Positions 12,288 through 52,160 of a stretch of DNA of 64,000 nt are shown one piece after another (the stretch's first letter is position 1; the number at the start of each line of letters is the position of its first letter). Under the pieces are notes generated by a model, which was not told the DNA's origin, did not search any database, and worked only from the letters and a program-made list of their open reading frames with translations. The DNA is from Escherichia coli (GTDB taxonomy: Bacteria; Pseudomonadota; Gammaproteobacteria; Enterobacterales; Enterobacteriaceae). Location: NCBI RefSeq assembly GCF_051903065.1, contig NZ_CP178438.1. One strand, given 5' to 3'. The position numbers and the translations under genes were made by a program.

Positions 12288-12303
12288 TGGCATGATTCTT
12301 GTA
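12288..12303 (+). promoter_or_regulatory. Candidate sigma54 promoter of pspG
   Basis: TGGCAT-gattc-TTGTA, resembling the TGGCAC-N5-TTGCA consensus, ~35 nt upstream of the pspG ATG. Confidence 0.45.
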
Positions 12304-45517: not shown

Positions 45518-46207
45518 TTAACCGTTGGTTAATTTTTCAAACTCTTCACACCCGGTATCAAACCCTTCCATACAGCTCAGGTTCAACCAGTGCAGCGCCT
45601 TTTGTTTATTCTTCTCGATAAAACCTTCTTCACCGTTTAAGAACATCATTCCCGCCCAGTACTCGGAATAACCGGTTCGGGAAATTGCAGAGCTGCGTTT
45701 GAAATACCAGGTTGCCTTGTCATCGTCGGCCTTAATGCCCACGCCGTTGGCGTAAATCAAACCAAGCAGCATTTGGGCATCGACGGCAGAGTCGTTCTCC
45801 AGATCTTCCGAGGCGTTTTCTAACAGCGAAATCGCCTTTGGATAATCCGGTTTGCCCGCTTGAGTATTTACCAGAATATGCGCCAGCGTTACTTCACCTT
45901 CTTTACTGCCCGCTTGCGCCGCTTTCTCTGCAAGAACTTTTGCTTGTGGATAGTCCAGACTGACCGGATTGGTGATTTTGATCTGCGCCAACAGCGCGCA
46001 GGCATCAGCATCACCGCTGTCGGCGGCTTTCTGTGCCCAATATTCGGCTTTGCTCAAATCGCCGGAGCTAAACCAGCTGTCGGCAAGAAAATATTGTGCG
46101 CGTCGGTCCCCGGCCTCTGCTGCCTTTAAATACTGGCTGCCAGGCTCGGAGTCGTTGGCGTGGGCAAAGAATGTCAAAAACAACATCAATGCGATAATTT
46201 TTTTCAT
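45518..46207 (-). CDS. yjcO: Sel1-repeat protein
   Basis: 229 aa; signal peptide; repeated ...AQ..LA..Y..G.GV..D..KA..W... units. Confidence 0.9.
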   Translation of the reverse strand: MKKIIALMLFLTFFAHANDSEPGSQYLKAAEAGDRRAQYFLADSWFSSGDLSKAEYWAQKAADSGDADACALLAQIKITNPVSLDYPQAKVLAEKAAQAGSKEGEVTLAHILVNTQAGKPDYPKAISLLENASEDLENDSAVDAQMLLGLIYANGVGIKADDDKATWYFKRSSAISRTGYSEYWAGMMFLNGEEGFIEKNKQKALHWLNLSCMEGFDTGCEEFEKLTNG

Positions 46208-46258
46208 TTTGATAATACGATTGGGTAGGGAGTAACCAGTATAAAGAGTTCGAATGGA

Positions 46259-46286
46259 TAAAAAAACAGCCTCCGAAAGGAGGCTG
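46259..46286 (-). terminator. Rho-independent terminator of fdhF
   Basis: cagcctcc-gaaa-ggaggctg hairpin followed by a T-run on the minus strand. Confidence 0.7.
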
Positions 46287-46300
46287 TAGAAAGGACTGTA

Positions 46301-48448
46301 TTACGCCAGTGCCGCTTCGCGCAGGCGAGTTTTCAACTTGTTGTACTCGTCAATCACGTACTGCTCGGCGGCGCGCTGATCGGCGATCGGCTCGACGCGC
46401 ACGGCGCAGTATTTGTATTCCGGCGTTTTCGTAATCGGGCTTAAGTTTTCGGTAACCAGCTCGTTACAGGCACCAATCCACCACTGGTAGGTCATGTAAA
46501 TCGCCCCTTTGTTCGGACGATCGCTGACCTGCGCACGGGTGATAATTTTGCCTTTACGCGAGTGCACCCAAACCAATGCCTCATCTTCAATACCCAGACG
46601 TTTGGCGTCTTCGGTATTGATTTGTGCGTAGCCAGGTTCATCCGCCAGCGCCGCCAGTGCCGCACAGTTACCGGTCATCGAACGGCAAGAGTAGTGACCA
46701 ACTTCACGCACCGTTGACAGTACCATCGGGTACTCGTCGGTGAGTTTGTCGATTGGCGCTACCCAGTCGCAGGTGAAGAACTGCGCCAGACCGTTCGGGG
46801 TATCAAACTTCTCTTTAAACAGATAAGAAGTCCCCTGATCGGCATCTGAAGTATCGCGGCAAGGCCACTGAATGAAGCCCAGTTCGCCCATTTTCTCGTA
46901 AGTCGCACCGTAGAAATCCGGGCACAGATGACGCAACTCATCCCAGATCTCCTGGGTGTTGTTGTAGTGCATCGGATAACCCATACGGGTGGCGATTTCA
47001 CTGATGATTTGCCAGTCCGTTTTCAGATCCCATTTCGGTTCAACTGCTTTGAAGAAACGCTGGAAGCCACGGTCAGCCGCAGTAAACACGCCTTCATGCT
47101 CGCCCCACGACGTTGACGGTAAAATAACATCCGCCGCCGACGCGGTTTTGGTCATAAAGATGTCCTGAACGATAACCAGTTCCAGATCTTCAAAGGCTTT
47201 ACGTACTGCCGACAGCTCCGCGTCAGTTTGCAGCGGATCTTCGCCCATAATGTACGCGGCACGCACTTCGCCATGCGCTGCGCGGTGCGGCAGCTCGCTG
47301 ATGCGATAGCCGGTATGCGCTGGCAGGCTTTCCACACCCCAGGCTTTGGCGAATTTCTCGCGGTTAGCCGGATCTTTCACGTACTGGTATCCCGGATACG
47401 TATCCGGCAGCGCGCCCATATCGCAGGCACCCTGCACGTTGTTCTGACCACGAACCGGGTTTACACCCGCATGCGGCTTACCGAGGTTACCGGTCAGCAT
47501 CGCGAGGCTGGTCAGAGAACGCACGGTTTCCACGCCCTGGTAGAACTGGGTTACACCCATGCCCCACAGGATGGCGGCGCTTTTCGCCTGGGCATACATC
47601 CGTGCCGCCTGACGAATCTCACTGGCGCTGACGCCGGTGATATCTTCAACCGACTCCGGCGTGTAGCCTTCAACGATTTTACGATACTCTTCAAAGCCTT
47701 CTGTACGTGAAGCGACGAACGCTTTGTCGTACAGATTTTCTTCAATAATGACATGGCCCATCGCATTCAACAGCGCGATGTTCGAGCCGTTTTTCAGTGC
47801 AATGTGCATGTCAGCAATGCGCGCGGTTTCAATTTTGCGCGGATCGCAGACGATAATTTTCGCCCCGTTACGTTTAGCGTTAATTACGTGATTCGCCACG
47901 ATTGGGTGGGAATCCGCCGGGTTGTACCCGAAAACGAACACTAAATCGGTATTATCAATTTCGTTAATAGCATTGCTCATTGCGCCATTACCGACCGATT
48001 GGTGCAGACCTGCAACCGATGGGCCGTGTCAGACACGAGCGCAGCAGTCAACGTTATTGGTACCAATAACGGCGCGCGCAAATTTTTGCATTACATAGTT
48101 GGTTTCGTTACCCGTACCACGCGAGGAGCCGGTCGTCTGGATGGCATCCGGACCGTACTTCTCTTTGATGGCGCTCAGGCGCTCGGCAACGTAATTCAGT
48201 GCCTCATCCCAGGAAACAGGTTCGAGTTTGCCGCCACGCTGGCGACGGATCATGGGGGTTTTCAGGCGCGGGGTCAGGATCTGGGTATCGTTAATGAAAT
48301 CCCAGCCATAATAACCCTTCAGACACAGGGTACCCTGGTTGGTTTTCCCCTGCGCTGCCTCCGCCCGGACGATTTTGCCGTTATCGACGACCAGGTTGAT
48401 TTTGCAACCTGATGCGCAATAGGGGCAAACCGTGACGACTTTTTTCAT
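46301..48448 (-). CDS. fdhF: Formate dehydrogenase H (selenoprotein; in-frame TGA = Sec140)
   Basis: The two track ORFs 48029..48448 and 46301..47980 are in the same frame, separated only by TGA at 48029-48031; combined 715 aa; N-terminal CPYCASGC Fe-S motif; SECIS immediately 3' of the TGA. Confidence 0.95.
47988..48028 (-). other. SECIS element (selenocysteine insertion sequence) of fdhF
   Basis: mRNA reads UGA-CACGGCCCAUCGGUUGCAGGUCUGCACCAAUCGGUCGGUAAUGGC, the classic fdhF SECIS stem-loop. Confidence 0.9.
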
Positions 48449-48497
48449 CGGTCTCGCTCCAGTTAATCAAATCACGCATACGCGCTCTCGACTACAG

Positions 48498-48516
48498 TAT
48501 GCATCTTTTATGCCAC
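48498..48516 (-). promoter_or_regulatory. Sigma54 (-24/-12) promoter of fdhF
   Basis: Minus strand reads TGGCAT-aaaag-ATGCA. Confidence 0.8.
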
Positions 48517-48549
48517 ATTTTATTTGGGGTCATTCCCTGATATTACGGG

Positions 48550-48640
48550 CACTATTTATTCAAAACTCTGACGAAAAACAGGCTGTCGTCAGTTTTGACG
48601 TGACGAAACGAAATACCGCGTGACAGCCATCACGCGGCAG
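48550..48640 (-). promoter_or_regulatory. Probable FhlA upstream activating region for fdhF
   Basis: Position ~60-150 bp upstream of the sigma54 promoter; contains repeated GTCGTCA / TGACG-like motifs; sites not individually verified. Confidence 0.35.
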
Positions 48641-48645
48641 ACATT

Positions 48646-50112
48646 TTATTTTTTCTCGACGACGGGAGCCGCCTGATACCCGCCGCCCAGCGATTTCATC
48701 AACTGAATGCTTTGGATCACCCGGCGGCTGTCCAGCATCAGTAATGACATCTCTTCGGCAAGTACTGGCAACCGGGCTTCAGTGGCCTGTAAGCGGCTGG
48801 TTAAGCCGCGCTGATAGGCGGCCTCGGCAGCGCGCTGGGTGAAGCGCGTGGCTTCCACGCGTTCAGCCTGCATTTCTCGCTCGTCGTTGAGCGTTTGCAG
48901 ACGCGTGCCGTTGACGGCAACGTCACGCACCGCGTTCAGTACTGACTGGTTGTAACGTTCAATCATCATGTTGCTGGTGGCGCGCGTGCCTTCGAGATTG
49001 GCATTCAACCGTCCACCGTCAAACAGCGGCAATTTCAGACCCGGGATAAAGTTGAACTGGCGACTGGTTTTTTTGAATAAGGTATCCAGGTGGATGGCAT
49101 CAAGGCCGAAAAACGCTTTGATATCAAAGCTCGGGTAGAACAACGCCCGCGCGGAATCCACCTGATCTAATGACGCCTGAACATACCAGCGCATGGCTTG
49201 CAGATCCGGGCGTCTGGCGAGCAACTCATAAGAGAGTGTCGCCGGAATGCCGGTCTGAACTCGTGGTAATGCTACAGGTTTGATCTCCGGCATATCGCTG
49301 GCTCCCGCGCCAATCAATGCACGCAGAGATTCTCGCGTTTCGGTGATTTGCCCTTTGACGGCAGCAATTTGTTTATCGACCGCCAGAATCTGTGCCCGCG
49401 CGCCGTGGAAAGGCACTTGCGCTTCCAGACCTTGCGCCACTTTACTCTGGTGCGCTTTCACCGCGTAATCAATCACATCGCGAGTTTGTTCTAACAGATC
49501 GAGCATCTGATAGCTGGCCTGCATACTGTAATAAAGCTGCGCTACGCCCGTGGTCAGCGATAGCTCTACTGCTGCGGTTTCTGCCAGCGCGGCATTATGC
49601 GCGCCAATGGCGGCGGCAACCGCTGAGCGATGCACACCCCACAAATCAAGATCCAGTCCGGCAAACAAACCTACTGTGGCTTCCGTATAGTACGGCCCGT
49701 CCATACCCAGTGCTGGCGCATCCATCGCATAAGGGCTTAAAAAGCCGTTCGCCGAGACGCGTTGGCGGTTGAGCATCCCTAACGCTGCGACCTGTAATTG
49801 TGAACCGGCATCTAACAAATCGGCCTGGGACTGCGCTTTTTCTTCCCGCAGTTTCGCTTCGGCGAGGGTGTGTGAACCACTTAGCGTCCGTTGGATCAGC
49901 GCATCCAGCTGCGGGTCATTGAGTTGTTTCCACCACTGCGCCTGCGGCCAGCCGGAGCTGGCAAGATGAATATCATCGGCCAGTTTGATTTGTTCCGGTT
50001 TGAGCTGTTGATGAGGCGCAGAATCCTTGCGTACCAGGGCACAGCCGGAAATCAGCGTCGTGCTGCCGAGAATGCTGCACAACAGCAGACGTGAAAGTTG
50101 ACGATTGATCAT
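48646..50112 (-). CDS. mdtP: Outer-membrane efflux channel (TolC/OprM family lipoprotein)
   Basis: 488 aa; lipobox LISGCA; K-12 synteny. Confidence 0.93.
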   Translation of the reverse strand: MINRQLSRLLLCSILGSTTLISGCALVRKDSAPHQQLKPEQIKLADDIHLASSGWPQAQWWKQLNDPQLDALIQRTLSGSHTLAEAKLREEKAQSQADLLDAGSQLQVAALGMLNRQRVSANGFLSPYAMDAPALGMDGPYYTEATVGLFAGLDLDLWGVHRSAVAAAIGAHNAALAETAAVELSLTTGVAQLYYSMQASYQMLDLLEQTRDVIDYAVKAHQSKVAQGLEAQVPFHGARAQILAVDKQIAAVKGQITETRESLRALIGAGASDMPEIKPVALPRVQTGIPATLSYELLARRPDLQAMRWYVQASLDQVDSARALFYPSFDIKAFFGLDAIHLDTLFKKTSRQFNFIPGLKLPLFDGGRLNANLEGTRATSNMMIERYNQSVLNAVRDVAVNGTRLQTLNDEREMQAERVEATRFTQRAAEAAYQRGLTSRLQATEARLPVLAEEMSLLMLDSRRVIQSIQLMKSLGGGYQAAPVVEKK

Positions 50113-52160
50113 TGTGTGGCTCCTTGTGCCTGTTCCGTGGCGGGCGTTAATGCCGGGGCTGTCCAGTCTGGCAAGCGGGCGAAAAGCTGGCAGACGTGTT
50201 GCTCCTGTTTTAATAAGGTGGGCAGGATGGCCTGCGAGGCGGGTGTCTCTTCAAGCGTTATTTGAGGAGAACGGCTGAGTGCGGTTGCCAGACCGGCAGC
50301 GTATTTTTCCAGAGCGTCGGCAAACTGACCTGCTCTGTCCGGCTGTAGTGCGTTATCCAGCGCCTGCGCCGAGTTCCAGGTGGCATCCCAGGCGTGAAGA
50401 AGATCGCGGCCCTGACGAATAACCGTTTGCGAACGTTCAATCAGTAAGGCGCGTTCTTCGCTGTCCAGTTGACGCTCCAGCGCCACGCGTTGGCACATCT
50501 CTTCACAGGCATTAAACGCCGCATGCAGACCTATACGAATTTGCAGATAAGTGCGCAGAGCCGTGACTTCCTGCTGGCGTGGGATCCGCATTACTTTACT
50601 TAACATACCCAGCGCGACAGCCAGTTTTTGCGGCAGCGTGCGCGCTTCACTTTCAGGCCAGACAAAGGTGTAAATCACCGCGGACACCACGGTACCAATG
50701 ATGATACCCAGGGCGCGATCGCGAATTTCCACCAGGTCGTACACCGGGCCAAAAACGTTTTCGAGCGTGGCGAGCGCGAAGGTAACCACCATCTGTGTGC
50801 CGATATAAGAAGAGCGTTCAGAGCTGGTGGCAATCCATGCGCCCAACAGGAAAATCGGTGCCAGCACAAACAGCAATTCGACAATATTGTCCAGCCAGGG
50901 CATGACCAGTAGCGTGAATAACAGCGCCAGAATCGCGCCGCAAAAGGCCCCGCCAAAACGCAGCACCATCTTCTGGTACGATGAACCGACATTCGGATTA
51001 GCGACGATCACGCAGGTCAGCATACAGGTGTGAATGCCTTCCCAGTCCACGCCGCTGTAGAAGGTGTAACAGATCAAACAGGCGAGCAGCGTTTTTACCG
51101 CGTAGCGCATATAGTCTGGATTGGTAAAAGCATCGGCGGCCATTGATGGCGGTTTGGCTGCGGGCGTTGGCGGCGTATTCGGGTCCATCTGACCAAGCTG
51201 TAACAGTGTCTGGCAGATATTCTCCAGGTTACATTCCCGTGCCGCCATCGCTTCACTTTCACTGATCCGCCAGTGGCTTTGCCAGCACTGACCTTCGGTA
51301 ATGGCATGCTGCAGCTTGTTGATTTCTGAAGCTAATTTTTGTCGGAATTCAATAATTGCCTGAGAATCAGCAAAAGAGGTGGGATCGTAGCGATTCAGCG
51401 TCGAGTAAATGTAGGTTACCGTTGCCACGCAGCTTTGCCACCATGCACTCTGGGTTCGCCAGTTGGCATCGTCCGCGAGGCAAAAGACATTGAGTTTTTG
51501 CAGCGCCAGCGCCTCTCTTTCAATCCGCGTTTCGGGTAGCGGTGCGAGGCTGTCCGTCAGGTGGCTAATGGCATCATCAAGCCGATCATTAAGCACCTGA
51601 TGCATTTGCGAAATGGCACGACTGGGAAACCACAGCACGCCGATTAACGTCATCAGCAAGGTTGGATAGAGGCCAACAACGATACACCACAGCGTTAAGC
51701 GCACGACCACTTCCGGATAGTCGAGCATGGCGGGGAAGGTTTGCCCGTAAATAGCGACAATGGCGACGGCGAAAAAGACCAGCCCCAAGCGATGGGTGCG
51801 CATCAAAAACATGCAGCCCATCAGGATCGGTCCGGCGATGATCAAGCGGATCAACGGTTCGCCGTATGACCATTTGTAGATCAAAAACAGGCTGCCGATC
51901 TCCAGCACCGTGGCAACCACAAACAAGATCGCGACAAATTTGGTGTAAAACGCGTTCGACTGAATACCGTAAAACAGCACTGCCAGCGATAACGCCACAA
52001 AAGGGATCTCAAAAGTCATCGAGATCAGAATCACCAGCAGGCAGCCTACCCAGAGTTGCACGGTCTGCGGCACGCGACCTGGTCGCCGCTCGCTTAACTC
52101 TTCATGAAAGAACGCCAGCAGCCTGACCACCGGTAATGGCAGGGAGTTGAGCGCGCTCAT
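50109..52160 (-). CDS. mdtO: Efflux pump membrane subunit (FUSC/AaeB family)
   Basis: 683 aa; K-12 synteny. Confidence 0.93.
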   Translation of the reverse strand: MSALNSLPLPVVRLLAFFHEELSERRPGRVPQTVQLWVGCLLVILISMTFEIPFVALSLAVLFYGIQSNAFYTKFVAILFVVATVLEIGSLFLIYKWSYGEPLIRLIIAGPILMGCMFLMRTHRLGLVFFAVAIVAIYGQTFPAMLDYPEVVVRLTLWCIVVGLYPTLLMTLIGVLWFPSRAISQMHQVLNDRLDDAISHLTDSLAPLPETRIEREALALQKLNVFCLADDANWRTQSAWWQSCVATVTYIYSTLNRYDPTSFADSQAIIEFRQKLASEINKLQHAITEGQCWQSHWRISESEAMAARECNLENICQTLLQLGQMDPNTPPTPAAKPPSMAADAFTNPDYMRYAVKTLLACLICYTFYSGVDWEGIHTCMLTCVIVANPNVGSSYQKMVLRFGGAFCGAILALLFTLLVMPWLDNIVELLFVLAPIFLLGAWIATSSERSSYIGTQMVVTFALATLENVFGPVYDLVEIRDRALGIIIGTVVSAVIYTFVWPESEARTLPQKLAVALGMLSKVMRIPRQQEVTALRTYLQIRIGLHAAFNACEEMCQRVALERQLDSEERALLIERSQTVIRQGRDLLHAWDATWNSAQALDNALQPDRAGQFADALEKYAAGLATALSRSPQITLEETPASQAILPTLLKQEQHVCQLFARLPDWTAPALTPATEQAQGATQ

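Follow-up and report, generated by a model that had tools for sequence, protein, structure and literature searches.

The analysed window is a 64-kb stretch of E. coli DNA, in which the gene neighbours yjcO, fdhF, mdtP and mdtO are arranged as in K-12. The fdhF gene encodes formate dehydrogenase H. This selenoprotein forms one half of formate hydrogenlyase, the complex that makes hydrogen gas. The reading frame of fdhF is interrupted by an in-frame TGA, the selenocysteine codon, at 48031–48029 (minus strand), directly followed, as expected, by a SECIS element (Rfam SECIS_2, 47982–48036, minus strand, 87.1 bits). This SECIS is the sole Rfam match in 46000–49000, and no Rfam match was found in the intergenic region between mdtP and fdhF. 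The upstream reading frame, mdtP, ends at 48646 and the ATG of fdhF lies at 48448, leaving an intergenic region of 197 bp; the flanking genes are annotated as mdtP and fdhF in E. coli RefSeq records. The features of this region are collected in Table 1.

Table 1. Features of the mdtP–fdhF region, listed in the direction of fdhF transcription. Positions are those of the 64-kb window; negative numbers are relative to the predicted +1; identity is the mean identity to the window base among 81 aligned sequences.
Feature	Position	Strand	Identity	Sequence and remarks
mdtP 3′ coding end	48708–48646		0.27	
Stretch after mdtP stop, with left hairpin arm	48645–48626		0.36	
Terminator-like hairpin after mdtP	48614–48639	-		On the mdtP/fdhF strand; arms CCGCGTGA/TCACGCGG, then T-rich tail TTTCGTTTCG
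Distal GTCAC	48620–48624	-	0.88	About -135 to -131; in E. coli within the mdtP hairpin (right arm)
Variable spacer	48619–48608		0.30	
Conserved upstream activating block (putative FhlA enhancer)	48560–48607	-	0.80	TTCGTCACGTCAAAACTGACGACAGCCTGTTTTTCGTCAGAGTTTTGA; 48 bp, about -118 to -71
First direct repeat	48601–48608	-		TTTCGTCA; includes TTTCG(T), one half of the FhlA consensus as quoted
Core palindrome	48587–48600	-		CGTCAAAACTGACG; centre about -104.5; best candidate FhlA site
Second direct repeat	48569–48576	-		TTTCGTCA; 32 bp from the first; about 99% conserved
Gap	48559–48551		0.38	
Spacer element	48525–48550	-	0.68	GCCCGTAATATCAGGGAATGACCCCA; 26 bp, between enhancer and promoter; moderately conserved
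Sigma-54 promoter (-24/-12 element)	48500–48515	-	0.89	TGGCATAAAAGATGCA; TGGCAT 48515–48510, AAAAG 48509–48505, ATGCA 48504–48500; -24 GG 48514/48513, -12 GC 48502/48501
Leader, 5′ part	48499–48467		0.56	
Predicted +1	48489	-		From motif geometry; 41-nt leader
Shine-Dalgarno region	48466–48449		0.88	
Shine-Dalgarno GGAG	48457–48460	-		8 nt before the fdhF ATG, in the highly conserved stretch TTAACTGGAGC
fdhF coding sequence (formate dehydrogenase H)	46301–48448	-		715 codons, in-frame TGA at codon 140

The region is native to E. coli. Among 5,426 complete genomes of this species, 5,419 matched a 301-nt query across it, 5,252 of them with at least 99% identity. Alignment with K-12 MG1655, whose fdhF promoter (confirmed in EcoCyc) and upstream activating sequence are sigma-54 and FhlA dependent, gives a single mismatch in all 197 bp, an A at 48524 where K-12 has C. 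This position lies 9 nt upstream of the TGG of the promoter and adjoins the spacer element. Since many other E. coli genomes are identical (100%) to the window over the queried region, the difference is a natural polymorphism. On the opposite strand, a 63-codon reading frame starting with GTG (48432–48623, plus strand) runs across promoter and enhancer; it covers patchily conserved regulatory DNA and is most likely spurious.

For the conservation map, the 260 nt upstream of the ATG were aligned with MAFFT L-INS-i for the window and 80 orthologous fdhF loci of Enterobacteriaceae (one genome per species), which were collected using the first 139 codons of fdhF as the query. The resulting identities (Table 1) reflect shared descent and are not to be counted as independent events. 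The profile is clearly segmented, with the 48-bp block at 48607–48560 standing out from flanks of 0.27–0.38. In a record assigned to Chryseobacterium sp. 18061, the FdhF N-terminus is 96% identical and stands behind a promoter and leader of the Enterobacteriaceae type, nearly identical to those of a Citrobacter isolate of the same study; this record is probably mislabelled or contaminated.

The sequence-only reading had pointed to GTCGTCA/TGACG-type repeats upstream of the promoter as consistent with sites of the enhancer-binding protein FhlA. All of the repeats that it flagged lie within the conserved block, and they are real and non-random. TGACG/CGTCA occurs four times in 48569–48605, that is, within 50 nt, against 0.23 expected (P ~1e-4), and forms the densest cluster of this motif in the 64-kb window. 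TCGTCA/TGACGA is found three times against 0.06 expected, and GTCGTCA itself once, on the plus strand at 48585–48591. Inverted repeats in the region comprise CTGACGA/TCGTCAG, TCAAAACT/AGTTTTGA and TCGTCA/TGACGA. The block is built around the core palindrome, with a TTTCGTCA repeat on each side. The first of these repeats is conserved as TTTCGWCA across the orthologues; the second is separated from the palindrome by an 11-bp linker and is followed by GAGTTTTGA (to 48560), a mirror of the TCAAAAC in the core palindrome.

The palindrome can be described as YGWCR-N4-TGWCG, a pattern present within 300 nt upstream of fdhF in 76 of the 80 orthologues and occurring elsewhere in the same loci at 0.011 per 300 nt. 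Even in the most distant genera (Arsenophonus, Atlantibacter and Franconibacter) it is kept, as YGWCA-N4-TGWCG. Enhancers of sigma-54 promoters typically lie about 70–150 bp upstream (PMC3844500), and the position of the fdhF block falls within this range. The form of the palindrome also agrees with TGWC-RAWRA-TGWC-A, the consensus of a published 13-site FhlA matrix (PMC7658346).

The same pattern is found upstream of the K-12 hyc/hyp, hydN and hyf sigma-54 promoters, where the recurrence is partly circular because YGWCR-N4-TGWCG was written after inspection of these promoters. The distance from the centre of the palindrome to the -24 GG is 80 bp in fdhF (CGTCAAAACTGACG) and 82 bp in hyc (TGTCGATGATGTCG), whose enhancer lies in the hycA–hypA intergenic region and whose sigma-54 promoter is TGGCACAAAAAATGC. 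Despite the similar spacing, the sequence of the palindrome and its flanks differ between hyc and fdhF, and the hyc region is divergent, being common to hypA. In hyc, an AT-rich stretch separates enhancer and promoter; in fdhF this interval holds the element GCCCGTAATATCAGG. The hydN-hypF and hyf operons resemble fdhF in having sigma-54 -24/-12 motifs with upstream palindromes, but differ in spacing, with 70 bp for hydN (CGTCACTAGTGTCG) and 104 bp for hyf (CGACACGGGTGTCG); in addition, the -12 element of hydN is GTGA, not TGCA. Another palindrome of the FhlA type, TGTCATTTTTGACG, was seen between hycA and hycB (870–883 of the extracted K-12 hyc locus), and it may be a chance occurrence or an internal site.

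Two published descriptions of FhlA sites were tried as locators and rejected. With the 13-site matrix, CGTCAAAACTGACG is the best match of the region (score 8.29) but ranks only 104th in the window, so that the matrix holds too little information for locating the enhancer. The 16-mer consensus CATTTCGTACGAAATG of Leonhartsberger et al. 2000, in the form quoted in PMC4987338, agrees with the fdhF region at 9 of 16 positions at best, no better than at 415 other positions of the window; as a rigid pattern, this quoted form likewise reaches 9/16 at best in the hyp and hydN enhancers and is non-discriminating. The sole informative part of the consensus as quoted is its TTTCGT half-site, which is enriched in the region (3 observed against 0.04 expected).

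The placement of the repeats in a strongly conserved block, together with a palindrome type and spacing common to FhlA-dependent promoters, bears out the proposal that they fit FhlA sites. What the present analysis shows is the elements themselves, that they are placed non-randomly and conserved, and that other FhlA-dependent promoters share this architecture. We consider with high confidence that FhlA acts on the 48-bp block, with the core palindrome as the best candidate for the bases contacted.

Two conserved elements outside the block, which match none of the descriptors applied, raise the question whether the enhancer extends beyond one or two FhlA sites and is composed of more parts. The distal GTCAC has an identity of 0.88 against 0.30–0.36 in its neighbours, and across genera it lies upstream of the core palindrome at a constant distance of 24 bp; judged by its sequence, it may be a further FhlA half-site. 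The spacer element is the second. Each of them might be contacted by FhlA in addition or might bind a second factor, and both may already be covered by published footprint work. An IHF site in the spacer element is unsupported: the consensus WATCAANNNNTTR gave in 48500–48620 only matches with two mismatches, two of them against 1.07 expected, which is no better than chance. On the whole, we regard a larger composite enhancer of this kind as rather unlikely.

In E. coli, the terminator-like hairpin with its T-rich tail lies directly after the mdtP stop, and further inverted repeats lie downstream of it. It could thus be argued that the upstream repeats are nothing but hairpins of an mdtP terminator without any role as an enhancer, all the more as the hairpin overlaps the upstream end of the range 48498–48640 that had been proposed as promoter and activator region. 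However, the left arm of the hairpin is unconserved in other genera, in contrast to the block downstream, which is kept even in genera without mdtP similarity upstream. Moreover, the palindrome of the block and its spacing to the -24 element are shared with hyc, hydN and hyf. We therefore hold this explanation to be very improbable. The terminator hairpin and the enhancer are probably both real and adjoin each other, and the proposed range is right in holding the promoter and the enhancer block but takes in, at 48639–48614, what looks like the terminator of mdtP. Because the right arm of the hairpin overlaps the conserved GTCAC at its fixed distance of 24 bp, one sequence may serve both functions.

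A second alternative accepts the enhancer but assigns it mainly to another enhancer-binding protein, for example HyfR, a paralogue of FhlA. HyfR activates the hyf operon as well, and the same type of palindrome is found upstream of hyfA. Against this, FhlA is named as the activator of fdhF in E. coli, Salmonella and Proteus (PMC3844500, PMC7658346, PMC4987338), and the activity of the Proteus mirabilis fdhF promoter falls in an fhlA mutant (PMC7658346). There is thus little reason to expect that HyfR takes the place of FhlA at this block, and FhlA remains the activator by far preferred here.

Downstream of the spacer element lies the promoter. The motif TGGCAT-N5-ATGCA, proposed as a -24/-12 element on the minus strand, is present exactly as described and on the same strand as fdhF, and its GG and GC are exactly 10 bp apart, the spacing required by sigma-54. 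Only its distance to the fdhF start had been understated: rather than about 30–50 bp away, its TGG begins 67 nt and its 3′ end lies 52 nt before the ATG. The pattern TGGCAY-N5-WTGCW has this single match in the window, against 0.44 expected, and at least one match in 35 of 100 shuffles. With the RpoN weight matrix of 186 promoters printed in PMC7658346, TGGCATAAAAGATGCA scores 13.72, rank 2 of about 128,000 positions in the window. Dinucleotide shuffles give 2.1 expected sites per 64 kb at this score or better. With 0.44 pattern matches and 2.1 matrix matches expected per window, the motif alone is not beyond chance. It is the position and orientation of the motif, not the bare motif, that are unlikely by chance, the number of such sites expected on the sense strand of a 197-nt intergenic region being 0.0033.

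Of the 81 sequences, 78 retain the GG-N10-GC core, and in many genera the -12 element reads CTGCA instead of ATGCA. In K-12, the promoter differs from that of the window by nothing in the motif itself: the 17-mer GTGGCATAAAAGATGCA is the sigma-54 ChIP-seq site OS41 (fdhF), of class C, which means experimentally confirmed in EcoCyc, so the exact motif proposed from the sequence is the K-12 site (PMC4591121). The spacer between fdhF and mdtP is also bound by the RpoN holoenzyme in genomic SELEX (PMC8743547). In Salmonella Typhimurium, the orthologous site upstream of fdhF (STM4285), TGGCATAAAACATGCATA, differs from the E. coli element in one spacer base (C for G); it is bound by sigma-54 in ChIP-chip, and the sigma-54 dependence of Salmonella fdhF is 29-fold, FhlA being given as its activator (PMC3844500). 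In S. arizonae, the enhancer block has almost the same sequence as in E. coli. Sigma-54 occupancy and dependence, as well as the role of FhlA as the activator, are taken from this literature.

Some deviating loci were noticed in the alignment. In Leclercia sp. 29361 (about 1390–1500 of the extracted locus), both enhancer block and spacer element are retained, but the -24/-12 element and most of the leader are apparently deleted; Enterobacter sp. BIGb0383 and Entomohabitans have degenerate -24/-12 motifs upstream of fdhF.

That fdhF is instead transcribed from an intergenic sigma-70 promoter, TGGCAT-N5-ATGCA being a coincidence, could appeal to the frequency of bare sigma-54 matches just given, but is hardly conceivable in view of the lack of any sigma-70-like -35/-10 pair on either strand in 48300–48800, the conservation of the GG-N10-GC core across genera, the occupancy of the site by sigma-54 both in vivo and in vitro at a promoter classed as experimentally confirmed (PMC4591121, PMC8743547), and the sigma-54 dependence of fdhF in Salmonella (PMC3844500). 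The cited literature also already reports that an rpoN mutant loses fdhF transcription and that the 5′ end lies about 12 nt downstream of the GC. The assignment to sigma-54 rather than sigma-70 in the sequence-only reading is thereby upheld.

In the ChIP-seq study, the predicted start site is set at 19 bp past the motif centre in the downstream direction, which for fdhF is 41 bp from the beginning of the gene (PMC4591121). Applied to the window, the rule of that study puts +1 at 48489, with the GG at -25/-24 and the GC at -13/-12; from the geometry of the motif, the start is thus predicted to within 1–2 nt.

Taken together, the region is almost certainly the native control region of E. coli fdhF, a sigma-54 promoter with the formate-responsive FhlA enhancer about 100 bp upstream. 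RNA polymerase with sigma-54 would bind TGGCATAAAAGATGCA as a closed complex that is unable to open alone. FhlA, the formate-sensing enhancer-binding protein, would bind the block at 48607–48560, with CGTCAAAACTGACG as the core flanked by the TTTCGTCA repeats. In the presence of formate, it would contact the bound polymerase by looping out the approximately 50 bp in between, presumably helped in some way by the spacer DNA. ATP hydrolysis by FhlA would then open the promoter, and transcription from about 48489 would yield an fdhF mRNA with a leader of 41 nt. Through this region, formate dehydrogenase H is expressed under anaerobic conditions in response to formate.

The control of fdhF is a textbook example of sigma-54 transcription that depends on an enhancer. 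Both the sigma-54 promoter and the FhlA enhancer are already known, well studied and ordinary, and their identification from the sequence was correct. The analysis adds no new biology; what it provides is coordinates at the level of single bases and a map of enhancer conservation over 81 Enterobacteriaceae sequences, which could aid the engineering of formate-responsive promoters.

As a side observation of weak standing, a small hairpin, GCGC-GUAU-GCGU with a 4-bp GC stem, can be drawn in the early part of the fdhF leader, close to its 5′ end (about 48484–48473, minus strand). It recurs in many genera, where its sequence varies with its self-complementarity kept, the variant hairpins being shifted by one column in the MAFFT alignment, and unrelated stems are found in Shimwellia and Franconibacter. 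The hairpin is absent in about 28 orthologues with short leaders, and the E. coli leader as a whole folds no better than its shuffles (z = 0.08).

Two other matches to the RpoN matrix in the window deserve mention. The best match of all, TGGCAGACGTGTTGCT (50188–50203, plus strand, score 14.66), is found within the 3′ end of mdtO in antisense orientation. Chance is its probable origin, because about two such matches are expected and neither mdtO nor mdtP is named in the main text of the E. coli sigma-54 ChIP-seq paper (PMC4591121). The other, TGGCATGATTCTTGTA at 12288–12303 (plus strand), scores 12.79 and equals the sigma-54 promoter motif of pspG, ChIP-seq site OS40 (TTGGCATGATTCTTGTA; PMC4591121), so that fdhF is not the only gene in the window with a known sigma-54 promoter.
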